A stretch of 9,454 nt of DNA from PVC group bacterium (GTDB lineage: Bacteria; GCA-001730085; JADFSZ01): positions 1-9,454 of the forward strand of contig JADFSZ010000054.1 of assembly GCA_022560555.1 (NCBI GenBank). Reading direction: 5' to 3'. Shown in pieces: positions 132 to 9,454 of this stretch. The first letter of the stretch is position 1, and every line of letters starts with the position of its first letter. Made by a program: the position numbers and the translations under genes. The notes beneath the pieces were generated by a model. That model saw only the letters and a list, made by a program, of their open reading frames with translations. It did not search any database and was not told the DNA's origin.

Positions 132-147
132 TGTTTCACGTGAAACA
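132..147. promoter_or_regulatory. parS: parS site 1 (ParB-binding centromere palindrome)
   Basis: Perfect match to the chromosomal parS consensus TGTTNCACGTGAAACA. The palindrome is limited to the 16-bp core (flanks t/t). Confidence 0.9.
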
Positions 148-334
148 TCCTTAGCCGGAACTACGGGGCTCATTTACGCTAGTTTTCCTCTTCACGTGTC
201 CAAAATGGAGCTGATAGGACATCACAAGGGCTTAATTTTTTTCATACGGATAAGGGCCTCCGATATATAGATCAGGGCTTACAGTTATTATAATTGTCTT
301 GCTTCATTGAAGAAGTTGTTTTACTGAAAAGATA

Positions 335-350
335 TGTTTCACGTGAAACA
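335..350. promoter_or_regulatory. parS: parS site 2
   Basis: Perfect 16-mer. The palindrome extends to 18 bp (334-351, aTGTTTCACGTGAAACAt). Confidence 0.9.
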
Positions 351-512
351 TTAACAGGTATCTAAGGTCATTTCGTTAGCTTCACTTTCATGCTTCCAAA
401 AGGCAACTGAAATACCAATAGTCCTCCTGAGCTTTATCGTAATCTGCATAAAATTAAAAACATTTCTGGTCTTTGTGATTTAAGCTACGATTAAGCACGT
501 ACAGATGACAAT

Positions 513-528
513 TGTTTCACGTGAAACA
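513..528. promoter_or_regulatory. parS: parS site 3
   Basis: Perfect 16-mer. The palindrome extends to 24 bp (509-532, caatTGTTTCACGTGAAACAattg). Confidence 0.9.
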
Positions 529-673
529 ATTGATATTTCTTATATATGCACCCTTAAATATGGCCGATAGGCCGCTATGGGGTTTATTCTTCTTGTTCTA
601 ACTCAGAAATGGATATTTTTTGTTCCTTGCAGGACGGGATCTCTCTGCGTTATTTGAATTTCATTAAATATGA

Positions 674-689
674 TGTTTCACGTGAAACA
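674..689. promoter_or_regulatory. parS: parS site 4
   Basis: Perfect 16-mer. The palindrome extends to 18 bp (673-690). Confidence 0.9.
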
Positions 690-892
690 TTGCTTCTCCG
701 GCGAATCATGCCCCGTTGATCGCTAAGGTTGCTGAAGGAAGCCTAATAGACAAACATGATATTTTCTTATCATCCGCCTTGAAAATGGTCGTGTTGAAAT
801 TACTAGGTTTAAGATCCCCTGTGCTTGTGAAATCAAAAGCAGGCAACGCTTTTACGTTTTACGAATCACGCTTCACTATTTACGATTTTTAA

Positions 893-908
893 TGTTTCAC
901 GTGAAACA
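893..908. promoter_or_regulatory. parS: parS site 5
   Basis: Perfect 16-mer. The palindrome extends to 20 bp (891-910). Confidence 0.9.
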
Positions 909-1062
909 TTGTAATTGTGATGGCTGATTCACGATTCGGAGAAAACCATCATCGAGGCATCACCTGGACACGATTTCCAAAGTATTTCATACCGGTTGAT
1001 GGAAGCTCAATATCATCTAAGCACAAAAAGAGAGATGATTCATTGAAGATAGTGTACTCTTC

Positions 1063-1104
1063 TTCACTAAAGCAATGTTTCACGTGAAACATTGCTTTAG
1101 TGAA
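1063..1104. repeat. 42-bp perfect palindrome centred on parS site 6
   Basis: TTCACTAAAGCAATGTTTCAC|GTGAAACATTGCTTTAGTGAA was checked base by base (1063 pairs with 1104, and so on; the first mismatch is 1062/1105). The right arm runs into a further exact parS half-site, GTGAAACA, at 1100-1107. Confidence 0.95.
1076..1091. promoter_or_regulatory. parS: parS site 6 (promoter-proximal)
   Basis: Perfect 16-mer at the centre of a 42-bp perfect palindrome. It lies 44 bp upstream of the -35 hexamer of the putative parAB promoter. Confidence 0.9.
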
Positions 1105-1217: not shown

Positions 1218-2108
1218 ATGGGGAAAATTGTTGCCATCGCTAATCAAAAGGGTGGCGTCGGAAAAACGACAACAGCGGTCAATTTAGCTGCTTGCCTATC
1301 GTTTGCCGGCAAAAAAGTTCTTCTTATCGACTTAGATCCACAAAAAAATGCGTGTAGCGGTCTTGGAGTTTACGAGGAAACTTATCAAATAAGCGCTGTT
1401 GACGTTCTGCTCAACGAAACTCCCGTAACGGATGCGATTCTAAAGACCTCTTTTAATAATCTTGACCTTCTTCCGTCTTCTTCAGATCTTGTCGGCGCTG
1501 AAGTGATACTTACCGACCTCCCCATGCGGGAGCAGAGGCTCAAAGCGGCCCTCAATAAAACTGTTCGTGATATGTATGACTTTATTTTCATTGACACCCC
1601 TCCGTCTTTAGGACTCATTACCATCAATGCTTTTGGGGCTTGCCACAGTGTCTTAGTTCCTATTCAATGCGAGTATTACGCGCTTGAGGGTGTTAGTAGC
1701 CTCATGATGACCATTGAAACCGTTCGTGAGAGATTAAATTCCCGTATCGAGCTTGAAGGTATTGTTATGACCATGGCGGATAAAAGGACGAATTTGAATC
1801 AACAGGTCATTGCTGAAGTAAGAGAGCATTTCTCAGAAAAAGTGTATCGAACTCTCATATATCGTAATATTACGCTGGCTGAAGCTCCAAGTTTTGGCAA
1901 ACCGGCCATATTTTATAATATAAGATCAGTAGGATCAAACTGTTATATTAGTCTTACAAAAGAATTTCTTGAAAAAAATTCCCAGGCGCCAAAGAAGGCT
2001 CTATCAAGGGGGCAGATGATTATTGATATTCAGGGTTCTGAGAGATATATTCAAGAATCGCATAGGGATTTCGTTGATTCTTCAATATTCGAAAAATCAA
2101 AAAAATAA
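1218..2108 (+). CDS. parA: Chromosome-partitioning ATPase ParA/Soj with an atypical 42-aa C-terminal extension
   Basis: 296 aa. It has the deviant Walker A NQKGGVGKTTT, DLDPQ, the Walker B-like FIFIDTPPSLG, and VPIQCEYYALEG. The protein is collinear with Soj-type ParA up to ...YISLTKEFLEKN (residue 254). Residues 255-296 are extra. Confidence 0.93.
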   Translation: MGKIVAIANQKGGVGKTTTAVNLAACLSFAGKKVLLIDLDPQKNACSGLGVYEETYQISAVDVLLNETPVTDAILKTSFNNLDLLPSSSDLVGAEVILTDLPMREQRLKAALNKTVRDMYDFIFIDTPPSLGLITINAFGACHSVLVPIQCEYYALEGVSSLMMTIETVRERLNSRIELEGIVMTMADKRTNLNQQVIAEVREHFSEKVYRTLIYRNITLAEAPSFGKPAIFYNIRSVGSNCYISLTKEFLEKNSQAPKKALSRGQMIIDIQGSERYIQESHRDFVDSSIFEKSKK

Positions 2109-2125
2109 CAATTGTGGAGGAAAAT

Positions 2126-3010
2126 ATGTTTAATATTGACTTAAATAATGATAAAGTGGTTCACAAAAAGGCTTTAGGTCGTGGTTTAGATGTATTAATC
2201 CCAGAAAAAGAGAAAAGACGTGGATTTGTTAATATCGAAATCGAGAAAATTATACCCAATGCCCTGCAGCCACGGAAAAATTTTGCCCCGGATGAACTTT
2301 CTAACCTTGCAGCCTCCATCAAAGAAAAGGGTGTTCTCCAACCGATCATTGTTCGCTCAAAGGGGAGCAAATATGAGTTGGTAGTCGGAGAAAGGCGCTA
2401 CCGGGCGGTCAAATCACTTGGATTATCTGTTATTCCTGCCATCATCAAGGAACTTTCGGATCGTGACATGCTCGAAATGGCCTTAATAGAGAATATCCAA
2501 AGAGAGGACCTTGATGCAATCGAAAAAGCTGAAGGATTTCTTAAGCTGATGAATGATTTCGGACTGACACACGATGAACTGGCACGTCATGTCGGACAGA
2601 GCCGAACGAGTGTTACCAACACATTAAGGCTGTTAAAGCTCCCCCATCGGATCAAAAAAGGGATTTCATATAAGAAAATCAATATGAGCCAGGCGCGGAC
2701 ATTGCTTGGACTGAAATCGGAGCATGAACAGATTCAAATGTACGAGCGTATTCTCGAAAACCCGCTCAACGTCAGGGATTTAGAAGAAATGGTGTCTGAT
2801 ATCCAAATCACATTAGATCCAAAATCCGTAACACGAAAAAAGAGGAAAAAAGACCCCCAATTAGGACTTCTCGAAGATGAATTGAGAGAGATTTGGGGAA
2901 CAAAGATCGTTGTGCGCGGCAATAACAAAAAAGGGCGCATTGAAATTCACTACTACTCTCTGGATGATCTGGACCGGATCCTGAAGCAATTAAAACGCCT
3001 CTCCCCATGA
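2126..3010 (+). CDS. parB: Chromosome-partitioning protein ParB/Spo0J (CTP-dependent parS-binding clamp)
   Basis: It has the N-terminal KKALGRGLDVLI motif, IIPNALQPRKNF, the CTP-binding motif GERRYRA, an HTH (LTHDELARHVGQSRTSVTNTLRLLKL), and a C-terminal dimerisation segment (GRIEIHYYSLDDLDRILKQL). I place the start at ATG 2126, 5 nt after GGAGG (2116-2120). The ORF track's in-frame GTG at 2114 overlaps that RBS. Confidence 0.92.
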   Translation: MFNIDLNNDKVVHKKALGRGLDVLIPEKEKRRGFVNIEIEKIIPNALQPRKNFAPDELSNLAASIKEKGVLQPIIVRSKGSKYELVVGERRYRAVKSLGLSVIPAIIKELSDRDMLEMALIENIQREDLDAIEKAEGFLKLMNDFGLTHDELARHVGQSRTSVTNTLRLLKLPHRIKKGISYKKINMSQARTLLGLKSEHEQIQMYERILENPLNVRDLEEMVSDIQITLDPKSVTRKKRKKDPQLGLLEDELREIWGTKIVVRGNNKKGRIEIHYYSLDDLDRILKQLKRLSP

Positions 3011-3223: not shown

Positions 3224-3808
3224 ATGAAGGGAAACTTGTATTTTGTTCATCCGACCAGCGTTGTTGACCAAGGAGCTGTCATTGGACGGGACACAAAAAT
3301 TTGGCATTTCTCACACATATCAGCACAAGCGATGATCGGACAAGATTGCAAAATTGGACAAAACGTCTTTATCTCTGATCATGTCAAAATCGGGAACAAT
3401 GTGAAAATTCAAAACAATGTTTCCATCTATACCGGAGTTGTTTTAGAAGATGATGTTTTTTGCGGCCCGTCTATGGTGTTTACGAATATTGTTAACCCGC
3501 GATCAAAATTTCCTAGGAATGATCCTAAATATTACCAAAAGACTCTCGTTAAACAAGGAGCGTCTATCGGAGCGAATGCTACCATTCTTTGCGGAATCAC
3601 TATCGGCAAACATAGTTTTATCGGAGCGGCCTCCGTTGTGACAAAAAGCGTTCCGGATTATGGATTGGTGTACGGGAATCCCGCCATGCTTAAGGGGTGG
3701 GTTTGTGTCTGCGGGAAAAAACTTGAAGGAAAAAATCAAGAATGGATGTGCCCTGATTGTCAAAAAGCTTATGATATCAACGGTCAAAAGGTGACCGCGA
3801 AAATATAA
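3224..3808 (+). CDS. Left-handed beta-helix (hexapeptide-repeat) sugar N-acetyltransferase, WbpD/WlbB-like, with a C-terminal CxC...CxxC cluster
   Basis: 194 aa. Repeated [LIV]-G-x4 hexapeptides (VIGRDTKI, MIGQDCKIGQNVFI, VKIGNNVKIQNNVSI). DDVFCGPSMVFTN and GASIGANATILCGITIGKHSFIGAASVV are typical of nucleotide-sugar amino-group acetyltransferases. RBS AAGGGG lies upstream. Substrate is not determinable from sequence. Confidence 0.75.
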   Translation: MKGNLYFVHPTSVVDQGAVIGRDTKIWHFSHISAQAMIGQDCKIGQNVFISDHVKIGNNVKIQNNVSIYTGVVLEDDVFCGPSMVFTNIVNPRSKFPRNDPKYYQKTLVKQGASIGANATILCGITIGKHSFIGAASVVTKSVPDYGLVYGNPAMLKGWVCVCGKKLEGKNQEWMCPDCQKAYDINGQKVTAKI

Positions 3809-3840
3809 ATGTTCAGCATAACCTAAAGAATGGAGACAAA

Positions 3841-4908
3841 ATGAATATTGCGGAACTGCTGCTTATGGCAAAGGAAAACAATGCTTCTGACCTTCATATT
3901 TCTGTGGGATTACCGCCGATTTTGAGAATTCACGGAATTATGGAGAGGACAGGGTCGTCACCGATGGAAAAAGAAGAAACACACGACCTCTTGTATGACA
4001 TTCTTTCGGATGCCCAAAAGAGTACGCTCGAAGAAAAGATGGATATTGACTTTTCTCTTGAGGTCGAGAATGTCGGACGATTTCGCGTCAATATTTATCG
4101 GGATCGACGGGGGATTGCCGCCGCCTTCAGACTCATTCCTGAAGAAATCCGGTCTGTTCAAGAGCTAGGATTACCTGACGCTCTGACGCACCTGGCCCGG
4201 AGAAGAAAAGGGCTGATTCTTGTGACGGGTCCGACAGGAAGTGGAAAGTCTACGACGCTGGCAACAGTTATTGATCAGATCAATGAAGAAAGAAAAGAGC
4301 ATATCATTACTATTGAAGACCCTATTGAATTTATACATCAGCATAAAAACTGTATGGTCAATCAAAGAGAAATCGGTTTTCACGCGGAGTCTTTTAACCG
4401 GGCCCTTCGGGCGGCTCTCAGAGAAGACCCCGATGTGATTCTGGTCGGGGAAATGCGGGATCTAGAGACGATCGGCATGGCGATCACAGCCGCCGAGACC
4501 GGTCACTTGGTTTTAGCGACACTGCACACAAACAGCTGTGCAGAAACGATTGATCGTATTGTCGATGTGTTTCCGTCTCATCAGCAAAAACAGATTCGAA
4601 CGCAATTGGCCAATAGTATTCAAGGGGTACTCACCCAAACACTCATCCCGACGATTGACGGACGGGGGCGGGTTGTGGCGTGTGAAGTGATGATTGGAAC
4701 TACAGCGATCCGAAGTTTGATTCGTGAAGCCAAGCCCCATCAGATCGCGTCCGTTATCCAAACGAGCACAAAAGAAGGGATGCAGAGTATGGACCAGTGT
4801 CTTAAAAATCTTGTGATGGAGAGAAAAATTGCTTTGTCAGAAGCCATATCGCGCGCGGATCATGTGGATGAGTTTCGAAAGCTTGAAGCAACGTATGGTA
4901 CAAAATAA
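3841..4908 (+). CDS. pilT: Type IV pilus retraction ATPase PilT
   Basis: 355 aa. ASDLHI, Walker A GPTGSGKST, Asp box ITIEDPIEF, Walker B DVILVGEMRD, His box TGHLVLATLHT, AIRSLIRE (AIRNLIRE motif), and EGMQSMDQCL. RBS GGAG at 3831-3834. Confidence 0.9.
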   Translation: MNIAELLLMAKENNASDLHISVGLPPILRIHGIMERTGSSPMEKEETHDLLYDILSDAQKSTLEEKMDIDFSLEVENVGRFRVNIYRDRRGIAAAFRLIPEEIRSVQELGLPDALTHLARRRKGLILVTGPTGSGKSTTLATVIDQINEERKEHIITIEDPIEFIHQHKNCMVNQREIGFHAESFNRALRAALREDPDVILVGEMRDLETIGMAITAAETGHLVLATLHTNSCAETIDRIVDVFPSHQQKQIRTQLANSIQGVLTQTLIPTIDGRGRVVACEVMIGTTAIRSLIREAKPHQIASVIQTSTKEGMQSMDQCLKNLVMERKIALSEAISRADHVDEFRKLEATYGTK

Positions 4909-4914
4909 AGAATT

Positions 4915-6657
4915 TTGAGGGGCAAATTTTTCGCCAGGAATTTCAAAAAGAATATTAAAGTGACAAAAAAAAGTAAATCAAAACAAGAGGATATTAAGCA
5001 AGACAGCCAATCGTTTGAGCAGAAAGTCAAATGGCTGGAGACGCTCTATCATGTGACACATGAGGTTGTGGGATCTCTCTCCCTGGAAAAATGTTTAAAA
5101 ACAATTGTCCACGAAACAAAAAAAATCCTCAAAATTAAACGAGTGTCGCTTCTCCTGATCGATCAGGAGAAAAAACATTTAAGAATAAAAGTCGCGGCAG
5201 GTATCGATCCCTCTGTTATCCGCAAAACAATTGTCAAAATGGGCGAAGGAATATCCGGATGGGTGGCTTTTCATAAAAAACCCATTTTTGTCGATGATAT
5301 TACCCAAGAAAACCATTTTTCTTCCTCAGGGTTTTCAGGCTACGATACAAAATCTTTTATAAGCGTTCCTCTTATGTTTCAGGAAGAATGTATCGGGGTT
5401 CTGAACGTCAACAACAAAATATCGGGGGAGCCCTTCTATGAAGATGATTTCCTTTTGTTAAAAGCCTTCGCTAATGAAGCCTCCATGGCCATCAAAAATG
5501 CGCGATTATACACGGAACTAAAAGAAGCTAACCAGCGGCTTAAGGAGATGGACGCGTTAAAATCCAATTTTGTCGCGTGCGTGTCCCATGAGCTGAGAAC
5601 ACCCCTCGCGAGCATGCGCTATCTTATCGCCGCTGTTCTTGACGATAAAAAATCCGCCATGCCCGAGGAGCAAAGAGAGTATTGCATGTTGGTCGAAGAA
5701 AACCTGGAGCGCCTGACACGGCTTGTCAACGATATCCTGGATATGTCTAAGATTGAAGCCAAGAAACTCACGCTTGATCGAAGACTTTTATTGATGAGCG
5801 ACATTGTTAAAAATATCAAGATATCGTTTGAAGGTTTAGCCGAGAAAAAGGGGATTACATTAAAGACTCATATGCAAAAACGGAACATATATGCTTATGC
5901 GGACCAGGACAAAATTTCGCAAATATTATATAACCTTTTAAATAATGCCCTCAAATTTACACCGAACAAAGGACGTGTGGATATTAAGCTTCGCTATGAA
6001 ACCCGTGTTAACCAAACGATGATTCGCGTGTCCGTATCGGATACGGGCCCGGGTATTCCCGATGATGAAAAAAAACGTGTTTTTGACCAATTCTATCAAT
6101 ACCAGAAAGGCACATCCGGGACCTCCGGCGGGACAGGATTGGGTTTGACCATCACAAAAGAATTGATTGAGCTCCACGAAGGGATATTGGAAGTCAAAGA
6201 TAATCTTTTCGGCCCCGGCGCGGTTTTTGAATTTGTCATTCCCGCATGTGACTCGACAAAATACCTTAAAGAGTTCCTCCCTCATGAAGTTCGTCACGCT
6301 CCGCCGGCCGGATTTGCCATATCCATGATTATTCTTCGGTTTCAATTTCCCAAAAACGCCGGCTTGAAAGTTAAAGATAAAATCTTACAGGATACTCAAA
6401 ATATCCTGGGGAAATATGCCGAGGCACGGGACATGGTTTTTGAGGAAGACAATAAACTTTTGGGAATCTATTACGGCATTAATCCGGAAAAGGCAAAAAA
6501 GAACAAGATCAAAATAGAAAACAATGTTCAAGCGCTTTTGATGGATTGCCAAAAGAACGGTTCTATCAAATTTCAAATAAAAAGATATTCCTACACCAAA
6601 AATATATCAGCCTTCAAAACCTTTATCACTCAAGTAAACGAAGAGTGGCAATCTTGA
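4915..6657 (+). CDS. Soluble GAF-domain sensor histidine kinase with an unassigned C-terminal module of about 135 aa
   Basis: 580 aa with no obvious TM segment. GAF-like region at about residues 40-195 (SFISVPLMFQEECIGVLNVNN). H-box SHELRTPL (His225, nt 5587-5589). N box NLLNNALKFT, G1 DTGPGI, G2 GTGLGL. The start is uncertain: TTG 4915 (ORF track) or GTG 4960. There is no in-frame ATG before codon 109 and no clear SD. Confidence 0.85.
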   Translation: MRGKFFARNFKKNIKVTKKSKSKQEDIKQDSQSFEQKVKWLETLYHVTHEVVGSLSLEKCLKTIVHETKKILKIKRVSLLLIDQEKKHLRIKVAAGIDPSVIRKTIVKMGEGISGWVAFHKKPIFVDDITQENHFSSSGFSGYDTKSFISVPLMFQEECIGVLNVNNKISGEPFYEDDFLLLKAFANEASMAIKNARLYTELKEANQRLKEMDALKSNFVACVSHELRTPLASMRYLIAAVLDDKKSAMPEEQREYCMLVEENLERLTRLVNDILDMSKIEAKKLTLDRRLLLMSDIVKNIKISFEGLAEKKGITLKTHMQKRNIYAYADQDKISQILYNLLNNALKFTPNKGRVDIKLRYETRVNQTMIRVSVSDTGPGIPDDEKKRVFDQFYQYQKGTSGTSGGTGLGLTITKELIELHEGILEVKDNLFGPGAVFEFVIPACDSTKYLKEFLPHEVRHAPPAGFAISMIILRFQFPKNAGLKVKDKILQDTQNILGKYAEARDMVFEEDNKLLGIYYGINPEKAKKNKIKIENNVQALLMDCQKNGSIKFQIKRYSYTKNISAFKTFITQVNEEWQS

Positions 6658-6675
6658 GGCAAAAGGGAAAATCCC

Positions 6676-7050
6676 ATGCCGAAAAACATATTACTCATTG
6701 AAGATGAAGAGAGTTTCGCGAAAAGCCTAACGATTTTTTTAGAGGGAAAAGGCTATTCTATCAGCTGGATCTCAGACGGGGAAAACGGTCTTAAACACGC
6801 GCAATCGGATTCTCCTGATTTGATTATCCTGGACGTGATGCTTCCCAAGATGGATGGATTTAAGATTTGCCGGTATCTCAAATTTGACGCGCGTTACAAA
6901 AAGATACCTATCTTGATGCTGACGGCCCGCGCGGAAAAATCGGATTTTGCTCTCGGAAAAGATATGGGTGCGGACGCGTATATGATCAAAACGGCAAAAC
7001 CTTCTTTGGTTTTGGAAAAAGTCCGGGAGTTGCTCGGAGAAAATAGCTGA
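6676..7050 (+). CDS. Stand-alone response-regulator receiver (CheY-like, no output domain)
   Basis: 124 aa. Acidic pocket E9-D10, phospho-acceptor D53 in LIILDVMLP, T in LMLTA, K in the YMIKTAKP region. There is no DNA-binding or other C-terminal domain. The stop lies 1 nt before the pilB ATG. Confidence 0.87.
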   Translation: MPKNILLIEDEESFAKSLTIFLEGKGYSISWISDGENGLKHAQSDSPDLIILDVMLPKMDGFKICRYLKFDARYKKIPILMLTARAEKSDFALGKDMGADAYMIKTAKPSLVLEKVRELLGENS

Positions 7051-7051
7051 T

Positions 7052-8752
7052 ATGAAGACAGCCCGCCATAAAGCTCTGCTCAATTATCTTAAAGATCATA
7101 AAATCCTGCCGGAAGAAAAAATTCAGGAATTGGTCAAAGCGACCGAAATTGAACAAACATCCATGGAAGTCTTGCTGGTCAAAAAAGGGTATTTAACGGA
7201 AGAGACTCTATATTCCATCTTGGCGGATATCAATAAAGTCCCTTATGTTGATTTGGCAAACTATCGCATTGACCGCGATATCCTAGAACTTATTCCCTAT
7301 GAATTAGCCCGCAAACACCATGTCATTCCTTTGTTTAAGATTCAAAACGTTTTAACGGTGGCGATGACGGATCCGGCGGACATTGTTATCATTGATATTT
7401 TGAGAGAACGTACAAGTTGTGATATTGATCCGTGTGTCAGTTCCCCCAAACTAATCTCGAAGGCCATCCAGGAGTACTACCAAAGCCGACAAACGATCAA
7501 TCACCTCATAGGAACGTTAGATAAGGAAATGACCGGTGTGGATCAAATTGTTAAAACGGATGAGACCGAAACCGTTCAACTTGCAGATGAAGCCCCCATT
7601 GTCAAACTTGTGAATATGACCGTGACCCAAGCTGTTCAAGAGGGAGCCAGTGATATCCATTTTGAACCCGATAAAGAATTTTTACGGGTTAGATTCCGTA
7701 TCGGAGGCATTATGCGTGAAGCGGCGACTCCTCCCAAACATCTGCAGTCGCCTATTCTTACGCGTCTTAAAGTTATGTCAGATATGGATATTTCCGAAAC
7801 ACGTGTGCCTCAGGACGGACGCTTTCATATCGAGGTTGATCATCGCCAGATTGATATTCGTGTGTCAAGCGTTCCGACCACGTATGGTGAAAACATAGTT
7901 CTCCGTTTATTAGATGTGAGCGGGGTGATGATAGGATTGGAAGGGTTGGGGTTCCGCAAAAATATTTTGAAAAGATTCGAAAAAGCGATCCGTATGCCTC
8001 ATGGGATTATCCTTGTTACGGGTCCGACAGGATGCGGGAAAACAACAACCCTGTATGCCGCACTACAAACTATCAATTCCAAGGATAAAAATATTGTAAC
8101 CATTGAAGATCCCGTGGAGTACCGTCTCGAGCTTATTCGGCAGATCCAGGTTCATCCTAAAGCCGGGTTGACATTTGCCACAGGATTGCGCTCCATCATG
8201 CGTCAGGACCCGGATATTATTATGGTGGGAGAAATTCGGGACGTGGAAACAGCTCGCCTGGCCATTCAAGCGGCGCTGACGGGGCATTTGGTTTTTTCTA
8301 CCCTCCACACGAATGATGCCCCAAGCGCGGTGATCCGTCTGAAAGACATGGGCATTGAGCCCTTTCTCATCGCGTCCACGGTTCGCAGCATTCTTGGCCA
8401 GCGTCTTGTGAGAAAATTGTGCGAACATTGCAAGGAAGCGTATACCCCCAATCCGGAACTCGTGAACTCTCTGGGGATCACTCCGGGGGACGATCTCGTT
8501 TTTTATAGAGAAAAGGGGTGTGAGTTCTGTCATCAATCCGGATATCAGGGGCGCATCGGATTGTTTGAATTGATGAGTGTCTCCCAGGAAATACAAGATC
8601 TCATTGTTCGAGATACTTCGGCTCAAGACATTAAAAAATGGGCGCAATCGCGCGCCTACGAGGATATCAAACAAGACGGGATACAAAAAGTTTGCCAAGG
8701 GCTCACATCTTTGTCTGAAATCTACCGGGTCACGGAAGAAGAGGCGGTATAA
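7052..8752 (+). CDS. pilB: Type IV pilus assembly (extension) ATPase PilB / GspE family
   Basis: 566 aa. N-terminal T2SSE_N-like domain, Walker A GPTGCGKTTT, Asp box VTIEDPVEY, Walker B DIIMVGEIRD, His box TGHLVFSTLHTN, and the tetracysteine motif CEHC...CEFC. Confidence 0.9.
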   Translation: MKTARHKALLNYLKDHKILPEEKIQELVKATEIEQTSMEVLLVKKGYLTEETLYSILADINKVPYVDLANYRIDRDILELIPYELARKHHVIPLFKIQNVLTVAMTDPADIVIIDILRERTSCDIDPCVSSPKLISKAIQEYYQSRQTINHLIGTLDKEMTGVDQIVKTDETETVQLADEAPIVKLVNMTVTQAVQEGASDIHFEPDKEFLRVRFRIGGIMREAATPPKHLQSPILTRLKVMSDMDISETRVPQDGRFHIEVDHRQIDIRVSSVPTTYGENIVLRLLDVSGVMIGLEGLGFRKNILKRFEKAIRMPHGIILVTGPTGCGKTTTLYAALQTINSKDKNIVTIEDPVEYRLELIRQIQVHPKAGLTFATGLRSIMRQDPDIIMVGEIRDVETARLAIQAALTGHLVFSTLHTNDAPSAVIRLKDMGIEPFLIASTVRSILGQRLVRKLCEHCKEAYTPNPELVNSLGITPGDDLVFYREKGCEFCHQSGYQGRIGLFELMSVSQEIQDLIVRDTSAQDIKKWAQSRAYEDIKQDGIQKVCQGLTSLSEIYRVTEEEAV

Positions 8753-8767
8753 AAAGAGTGAAATTTT

Positions 8768-9205
8768 ATGGTTAAAAATCACGCGAAAAATCGTAACGAA
8801 ACACGGATGCATCCGCGGGTTGATGTGCGGATACCGGTGATCTTCCAGATTGACGAGTCATCAAAATCGAGCATTCACATTGTTGACGAAAGTTTTATTC
8901 ATGGGGAACTTATGGACATCAGTGTCAATGGGGCCGGCTTTTTTATTCCGATTTTTATCCCGAAAGGCATCCGGATTGTGCTGCAAATTCAAGCGGTGCC
9001 TTTTTATAGCGATCGGGAGGGGCCTAACGAATATATCCGGACGACGGCGAAAGTCATATATTCCCGGCTGGATGTTCAAGACACCCAGAGTCCGAGAACA
9101 GAAGAACGATTCATAAGACGGTATCGGACGGGTGTGGAATATCTAAAAATTGATTCTTCGGATCAAAATGCCATTCAGATCTATACAGAAAAAAACAAAA
9201 GTTAA
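8768..9205 (+). CDS. PilZ-domain protein (predicted c-di-GMP receptor)
   Basis: 145 aa. RxxxR motif R13-MHP-R17 (nt 8804-8818) and DxSxxG motif D50-I-S-V-N-G55 (nt 8915-8932), with spacing typical of canonical PilZ domains. Confidence 0.8.
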   Translation: MVKNHAKNRNETRMHPRVDVRIPVIFQIDESSKSSIHIVDESFIHGELMDISVNGAGFFIPIFIPKGIRIVLQIQAVPFYSDREGPNEYIRTTAKVIYSRLDVQDTQSPRTEERFIRRYRTGVEYLKIDSSDQNAIQIYTEKNKS

Positions 9206-9214
9206 CCGGATATT

Positions 9215-9454
9215 ATGCCTGTTTTTGAGTATACAGCACGTGATTCAGACGGCAAGAAAATTGTTGGGATAATTGAAGCGGTCGACCGCCAGCGTGTACT
9301 GTCCTATGTGGATGGATTAGGCTTGCTTCCCATTGATGTGCGCAGCAAAAAAACCCCATTTTGGAAGAAATGGTTAAAGGTTTCGTTCGGACGAGTTAAA
9401 AAGCCCCACCTGGTATTTTTCAGCCGGCAATTGTCGACACTTATTAAAGCCGGG
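9215..9454 (+). CDS. pilC: Type IV pilus platform protein PilC/GspF, 5' partial (runs off the window)
   Basis: This ORF is not in the track because it is open-ended. My translation from ATG 9215 gives MPVFEYTARDSDGKKIVGIIEAVDRQRVLSYVDGLGLLPIDV...LVFFSRQLSTLIKAG. That is the characteristic PilC/GspF N-terminus (FxYxAxxxxGxxxxGxxxA ... FxRQLxxLxxAG). 80 codons with no stop. Confidence 0.8.
   Translation, partial: MPVFEYTARDSDGKKIVGIIEAVDRQRVLSYVDGLGLLPIDVRSKKTPFWKKWLKVSFGRVKKPHLVFFSRQLSTLIKAG

Follow-up and report, generated by a model that had tools for sequence, protein, structure and literature searches.

The window analyzed here is the whole of the 9,454-bp NCBI contig JADFSZ010000054.1, part of the metagenome-assembled genome of an uncultured deep-sea "PVC group bacterium" from hydrothermal-plume samples (ZHOU22; e.g., SAMN16252661). 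It carries the partition genes parA (1218–2108, + strand) and parB (2114–3010, + strand) directly downstream of a gene-free leader of lower GC content (1–1217), in which a 16-bp palindrome identical to the canonical ParB-binding site, parS, occurs six times. Scanning both strands located exact copies of TGTTTCACGTGAAACA at 132–147, 335–350, 513–528, 674–689, 893–908, and 1076–1091 (sites 1 to 6). All six are identical, each being an exact palindrome and an exact match to the 16-bp palindromic parS consensus, TGTTNCACGTGAAACA. No further match with up to three mismatches was found on either strand of the window. The first-pass annotation of this DNA had described six mismatch-free copies of canonical parS beginning at 132, 335, 513, 674, 893, and 1076, with no further full copy in the window, and our scan agrees with it on each of these points. 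Dinucleotide-preserving shuffles of the sequence gave an average expectation of 0.04 matches, and none of 200 shuffles reached six. The sites are spaced 203, 178, 161, 219, and 183 bp apart from start to start (145–203 bp of DNA separating adjacent sites), the array spans ~960 bp, and the spacings of the six sites show no helical phasing. Site 3 lies within a longer perfect palindrome (24 bp, 509–532, identified by an inverted-repeat search) and scores as terminator-like, and site 6 is the one nearest the promoter of parA.

The 131 bp located 5' of site 1 represent all of the upstream sequence in this assembly. Beyond the leader, ~10.6 kb of sequence from the organism was available, comprising 8.2 kb of the window and 2.4 kb from a second assembly, L011, which covers only window positions 3326–9454 and extends 2.4 kb further. 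Recurrence of the 16-mer elsewhere in the genome could be followed within this small sample, and neither the remainder of the window nor L011 contains another copy. Two other identities for the repeats were considered and rejected. A dispersed family of palindromes resembling repetitive extragenic palindromic (REP) elements does not fit six sites in 1.2 kb versus none in the ~10.6 kb checked. Nor do the repeats constitute a CRISPR array, which would be expected to have direct repeats of 23–50 bp, spacers of 26–72 bp, and cas genes, whereas the repeats here are 16-bp palindromes with spacers of 145–203 bp, and the window contains no cas genes.

No open reading frame (ORF) of at least 60 amino acids (aa) is present at 1–1217. 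The initial description of this region as ORF-free is accurate at that length and fails below it, where four ORFs of 46–58 aa occur, all within 706–1092. Two of these four small ORFs are not conserved genes, because the spacer that holds them is replaced in an assembly (L010) that is otherwise 99% identical to the window. Comparison of the leader with Rfam at gathering scores returned no match, a permissive Rfam search returned only sub-threshold hairpin matches to a palindrome around site 6, and no tRNA was detected in the leader. Its GC content is ~36%–39%, compared with 40%–50% in the genes. A replication origin (oriC) within the leader was also considered and rejected, as no DnaA-box sequence TTATCCACA was found there with up to one mismatch, although this consensus may not be the one used by the lineage. 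Relaxed DnaA boxes are no denser in the leader than in the genes, and an AT-rich unwinding element was likewise not found in the leader (no 30-nucleotide [nt] stretch reaches 87% AT).

The two genes downstream of the array encode a ParA and a ParB of the chromosomal type. ParA (296 aa) is a Walker-type ATPase (Pfam AAA_31, 210 bits) with a deviant Walker A motif, KGGVGKT, at residues 11–17, and is ~58% identical to many Soj/ParA proteins. It ends in a C-terminal extension of ~45 aa (residues ~251–296, window positions 1968–2108), making it ~40–45 aa longer than typical Soj/ParA proteins (253–260 aa). A tail of similar length, poorly conserved in sequence, is also found in the 292-aa ParA of a related locus (L006, described below). 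The parB gene starts 6 bp after the parA stop codon and encodes a 298-aa protein with ParB_N (carrying the GERRYRA motif), helix-turn-helix (HTH) HTH_ParB, and ParB_C domains (PF02195, PF17762, and PF23552, all above cut-offs). The partner of the array is hence a full-length, three-domain HTH ParB with GERRYRA and not a ribbon-helix-helix (RHH) protein, as had been read from the sequence initially. ParB passes the NCBIfam model TIGR00180 (183.7 bits, cut-off 58.45) and falls below the cut-off of the Noc model (238.7, cut-off 315). Its best relatives of solved structure are Spo0J of Thermus and Bacillus (1vz0 and 6sdk; E = 2e-52 and 2e-45, respectively), with which the GERRYRA and ENIQREDL motifs align intact. 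Four positions have been described as distinguishing parS binders from Noc, the latter having Q173 and R201 (Jalal et al., PMC7383237). In ParB of the window, the mapped specificity positions are carried by the segments QSR, TNT, LLK, and MSQAR and read R173, T179, K184, and S201, with N178 and R204 also kept (Caulobacter numbering, based on structure alignment). This pattern is of the parS type, and from it we strongly infer that the protein binds the six sites upstream of its own operon.

The promoter scan identified a strong sigma-70-type promoter between site 6 and parA that matches the consensus at 12 of 12 positions (TTGACA-16 nt-TATAAT, 1135–1162, + strand). It begins 43 bp after site 6 and lies 55 bp before the parA ATG, in line with the earlier proposal that the array abuts the promoter of parA. 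Site 6 is itself the center of a perfect 42-bp palindrome (1063–1104; 21-nt arms, 100% complementary, without a gap), which is followed by a T-run. As RNA, this palindrome would form a 19-bp hairpin (−27.3 kcal/mol, z = −8.45) resembling an intrinsic terminator. The chance of such an extension of the palindrome around site 6 is about 4^-13. A gap of 8 bp separates site 6 from an additional exact half-site, GTGAAACA (1100–1107, + strand); every other half-site in the window belongs to a full site. The 42-bp palindrome could stop read-through from upstream, and possible roles for it include those of a terminator, an insulator, or an additional binding site for ParB.

Two further assemblies show which parts of the leader are retained. 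L010, which is ~99% identical to the window and starts at window position 101, carries the same six sites, and its 42-bp palindrome around site 6 is identical to that of the window. L006, from a different Joint Genome Institute (JGI) metagenome, is a distant member of the same lineage. Its ParB and ParA are 62% and 65% identical to those of the window, respectively, and it has the same gene order (parA-parB-LbH-pilT-GAF kinase). Within the 326 bp before parA, L006 contains three full and identical 16-mers, as well as a fourth that is cut by the contig end (position 1–13). Its promoter (TTGACA-16-TAAAAT), likewise a strong one, starts 11 bp after the last parS. BLASTN returned no DNA match of L006 to the window, the spacers cannot be aligned, and the 42-bp palindrome is absent from L006. 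Both the array and its promoter-proximal position have therefore been kept across a deep split, while the DNA between the sites has turned over, which indicates that the sites are under selection in this lineage. The same contrast, anticipated in the first-pass annotation as 16-mers maintained among decaying spacers, is apparent within the array and between lineages. A search with ParA for additional lineage members returned only L006, the remaining matches being generic Soj proteins of up to 60% identity.

Arrays of this kind were absent from the more distant loci compared. Among eleven more distant ParB loci (35%–50% identity, from several phyla), we found zero to two sites per locus with up to two mismatches, within up to ~10 kb on each side, and these were never closer together than ~1.3 kb. 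Comparing the regions upstream of related parAB genes thus gave a divided answer, with an array in L006 and none of comparable density at the eleven distant loci. In L015 and L016, a single degenerate parS (GGTTTCACGTGAAACG, position 9140) is located 43 bp before parA, in an unrelated 3-Mb genome with two flanking transposase genes. L015 is one of the eleven distant loci, and a single promoter-proximal parS is not unusual, given its presence there.

The DNA between the sites retains traces of how the array may have been built. It had been described initially as almost completely diverged. This is mostly the case, although weak but significant homology links several of the spacers. The flank before site 1 (26–121, + strand) is homologous to the sequence before site 3 (406–502; direct-repeat search, 57 nt at 81%, z = 6.3), and appears to be the remnant of a duplicated unit of ~380 bp. 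In addition, a weak alignment joins the ~100 nt directly following site 1 to the corresponding stretch following site 2 (z = 4.3). With the parS sites masked, autocorrelation of the leader is strongest at an offset of 381 bp (z = 4.1), which matches the distances from site 1 to site 3 (381 bp) and from site 3 to site 5 (380 bp). The 380-bp spacing of the sequence before site 5 fits a third unit, although pairwise tests gave no significant homology between it and the first two. The residual spacer homology and the 381-bp periodicity suggest that the array was built up as units containing parS were duplicated in tandem, most recently a two-site unit of ~380 bp, and that the sequence outside the 16-mers then decayed. 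On its + strand, the leader contains six copies of the hexamer ACGATT (94, 106, 487, 882, 931, and 970), versus five in the other 8.2 kb. This hexamer was considered as a second binding motif and rejected, as the copies either lie in the duplicated flanks before sites 1, 3, and 5 or show no fixed distance to a site, and they are probably duplication remnants.

Apart from one spacer, the leaders of the window and L010 differ by only ~10 substitutions and one 6-bp indel. That spacer, between sites 4 and 5 (replaced region 692–885 in the window, compared with 590–720 in L010), is 203 nt long in the window and an unrelated, unalignable 131 nt in L010. The L010 version is clearly homologous to the window spacers that follow site 2 (z = 15.8) and site 1 (z = 6.5), which suggests that units have been exchanged or converted between strains, or that a further unit exists outside the window contig. 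An assembly artifact was rejected as an explanation for the array, as two assemblies made independently of each other contain the same six sites and match in four of the five inter-site spacers. Contig ends are also found at or near sites: the window ends 131 bp before a site, L010 31 bp before one, and L006 inside one. Given that three assemblies end in this manner, and that the flank of site 1 matches a spacer within the array, it is plausible that the array continues upstream of the contig start, where the unit homology would place another site ~30–50 bp away.

Taken together, we consider it likely (a probability of roughly 80%) that the leader serves as the whole centromere, or a large share of it, of a chromosomal-type ParABS system in this uncultured PVC-group bacterium. 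By analogy with characterized ParB proteins, each 16-bp palindrome would nucleate and load one dimer of ParB, the product of the gene lying 1 kb downstream. Binding to parS would trigger CTP-dependent closure of the N-terminal gate, after which the clamp would slide onto flanking DNA and free the site for reloading. Six sites at a spacing of 161–219 bp may then support a high loading flux and a compact, ParB-dense complex spreading over the leader and parAB, and six consensus sites within <1 kb would be expected to raise the local concentration of ParB very effectively. Such a complex would stimulate nucleoid-bound ParA-ATP to drive segregation, and would probably recruit SMC. The locus would be expected to be chromosomal and close to the origin. 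ParB occupancy of, or spreading from, the last site probably represses the parAB promoter as negative feedback, given that the −35 element follows this site at a distance of 43 bp here and of 11 bp in L006. With the last site abutting the promoter in both members of the lineage, we put feedback on parAB transcription at close to an even chance, if slightly below it. The array itself may have grown by tandem duplication of parS units of ~190 or ~380 bp, and may still change by recombination between units.

Several observations weigh against this interpretation. The window is a whole contig of only 9.45 kb. ParB-based scans of genome and metagenome contig collections yielded no longer version, and an exact look-up of ParB along with look-ups of ParA, PilT, and a cluster member returned only shorter or non-overlapping assemblies. 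All of the assemblies retrieved end either in the array or close to it, or else in the interval separating parB from the gene that follows. Genes commonly marking the origin region (rsmG, jag, yidC, rnpA, and dnaA), which adjoin more distant homologs, are absent downstream of parAB and not seen in the sequence upstream of it. ParB also departs from the usual residues at two positions (S rather than G at 201, and Q rather than K at 171), which makes its specificity for parS probable rather than certain. For autoregulation in particular, precedent is divided: ParB represses genes adjacent to an intergenic parS in Pseudomonas aeruginosa, whereas Spo0J of Bacillus subtilis has no effect on genes adjoining its parS sites (PMC7022226).

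The genes that follow parAB are all on the + strand and, according to Pfam, encode a hexapeptide acyltransferase, PilT, a GAF histidine kinase, a response regulator, PilB, and a PilZ protein. A type IV pilus module thus lies directly after parAB (window 3841–9205; L011 5890–7107), made up of pilT, the GAF histidine kinase, a receiver-only response regulator, pilB, PilZ, and pilC, the gene order of which is conserved in L006 and L011. No phage or transposon genes were identified in the window by Pfam.

These neighbors bear on a different interpretation, in which the array serves a secondary replicon (a chromid, megaplasmid, or integrated element) with ParAB of the chromosomal type as its centromere. 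The layout resembles the repeat arrays situated directly before parAB on secondary replicons, namely chromosome II and the megaplasmid of Deinococcus (PMC7671480), the usual origin-region neighbors are missing on the visible side, and all of the assemblies found are short. However, the genes downstream have ordinary housekeeping and motility functions (pilT, pilB, pilC, PilZ, kinase, and response regulator) and keep the same order in L006 at 62% identity, the site is the universal chromosomal parS rather than a replicon-specific variant, and neither DnaA boxes nor iterons mark the leader as an origin. Moreover, a plasmid origin of ParB was rejected after a tblastn search of the 72,556 plasmid records in PLSDB, in which the best match had an identity of 41% and the top records were mostly soj/spo0J loci of chromosomes mislabeled as plasmids. 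We regard a secondary replicon as unlikely. Slightly less likely again is a mainly transcriptional function, with the palindromes acting as ParB operators and/or insulating hairpin terminators and segregation being nucleated elsewhere. The short distance from site 6 to the −35 element in the window, and the shorter one in L006, would suit an operator, as would the repression through intergenic parS in P. aeruginosa noted above (PMC7022226), and both the stable hairpin with its T-run at site 6 and the terminator-like score of site 3 would suit a terminator. One operator would be enough, however, and six sites over 960 bp, five of them 230–1,000 bp from the promoter, would be unneeded, while L006 lacks the extended palindrome. 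As a transcriptional role is also compatible with centromere function, it is more likely to be an added role than an alternative to it.

Very improbable, in our assessment, is a third possibility, whereby the sites are neutral or selfish palindromic repeats, the remnant of a mobile element bearing host parS, or an assembly artifact, with no dedicated role alongside the adjacent parAB. One spacer does differ between assemblies, and canonical parS arrays do occur on phage contigs. For example, L099 (IMGVR_UViG_3300035391_000073), a phage contig with a terminase large subunit, has eight parS sites at 6137–6460 (six exact and two with one mismatch), mostly in 38-bp tandem spacing, with the DnaA-box sequence TTATCCACA ~100 bp downstream and no parB among ORFs of at least 90 aa. 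A large family of ~15-kb podophages (within L018–L122, e.g., L043 from IMG/VR sample 3300045988), which encodes a DNA polymerase (phrog_1907), a terminase, and tail proteins, likewise carries four to six exact parS sites per genome, ~0.2–4 kb apart. This resembles the use of host Spo0J by phi29-type phages; Meijer et al. reportedly described in 2005 that phi29 exploits Spo0J through such sites. Phages with host-type parS thus share the same multicopy 16-mer on small genomes, but do not have parAB genes of their own adjoining it, unlike the window. Against a selfish or artifactual origin are the lack of any site in the other ~10.6 kb from the organism, the agreement between the two independent assemblies, the array placed directly before parA in L006 in DNA that is otherwise unalignable, and a window without phage or transposon genes. 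The interpretation as a chromosomal-type centromere hence remains the one that we favor.

The arrangement of the sites has precedents in several partition systems. In type Ib plasmid centromeres, such as parH of TP228 and parC of pB171, iterated sites lie before parA and reach its promoter, allowing autoregulation. The window shares repeats before parA that reach the promoter, a likeness of layout only, as type Ib systems use a small RHH protein and short contiguous repeats, whereas the window has a 298-aa ParB and sites 145–203 bp apart. Identification as a type Ib partition locus was therefore rejected, the only partner gene being that of the HTH ParB. In Deinococcus radiodurans, ParB-binding repeats occur directly upstream of parAB on chromosome II and the megaplasmid (cisII and cisMP; PMC7671480). 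As in the window, iterated repeats are found in the few hundred bp before a parAB operon encoding an HTH ParB, but the Deinococcus repeats are direct iterons of 18 bp, specific to each replicon, which overlap DnaA boxes and double as an origin, in contrast to the universal, palindromic, and widely spaced parS of the window, which lack DnaA-box enrichment. Caulobacter crescentus likewise has canonical sites clustered beside parAB. Its five strong sites are distributed over ~5 kb and lie inside genes, whereas those of the window are ~10 times denser and non-coding. ParB of Caulobacter spreads no more than 2 kb from a single site, and it has been proposed that tight packing of the sites offsets this short range by increasing the local amount of ParB (PMC5815017).

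The closest parallel is that of Myxococcus xanthus, in which 22 canonical parS sites (24 by another count) form a 3-kb cluster ~4 kb upstream of parA, and ParB binds in vitro to a 3.1-kb fragment of the cluster as well as to one consensus site on its own (PMC3899335, PMC3778016). Like the window, M. xanthus has many canonical 16-bp sites, spaced ~140–190 bp apart and placed upstream of a canonical parAB operon with an HTH/CTPase ParB. The M. xanthus cluster is denser (one site per ~139 bp, compared with ~189 bp in the window), its sites vary in sequence and orientation and lie ~4 kb from parA, and the locus is ~30 kb from ori. In contrast, the six identical sites of the window lie in 960 bp that share the parA promoter region, on a contig of 9.45 kb. 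In light of the M. xanthus cluster, the Deinococcus arrays before parAB, and the single site in L015, the novelty attached to this layout in the first-pass annotation is overstated, and it cannot be called essentially undescribed for chromosomal-type parts. The locus is rather a compact example of an arrangement already known from Myxococcus. What is particular here is that all sites match the consensus, that they occupy one non-coding leader shared with the promoter, and that the lineage belongs to the PVC group and has no studied partition system.

The function proposed for the locus, that of a ParABS centromere, is ordinary, and the current understanding of partition systems is unchanged by it. 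Its value lies in being a compact, non-coding array of six consensus sites, retained between deeply separated members of an uncultured PVC-group lineage, and the 1.2-kb fragment would provide a convenient natural substrate with multiple parS sites for ParB loading assays. The array also keeps traces of its construction, including the homology between units, the 381-bp periodicity, and the spacer swapped between near-identical strains. Why parS sites cluster, and how a centromere region expands, are open questions (PMC7333895, PMC5815017), and the locus lends modest sequence-level support to tandem duplication as a route of centromere expansion. A bolder proposal, which we hold to be doubtful, is that this is a regional centromere still expanding and reshuffling by unequal recombination, with an array of more than six sites that varies among strains and is wired to the parAB promoter such that ParB is titrated against its loading sites. 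If true, the locus would represent a natural system for studying how bacterial centromere regions expand, as left open in previous work (PMC5815017, PMC7333895).

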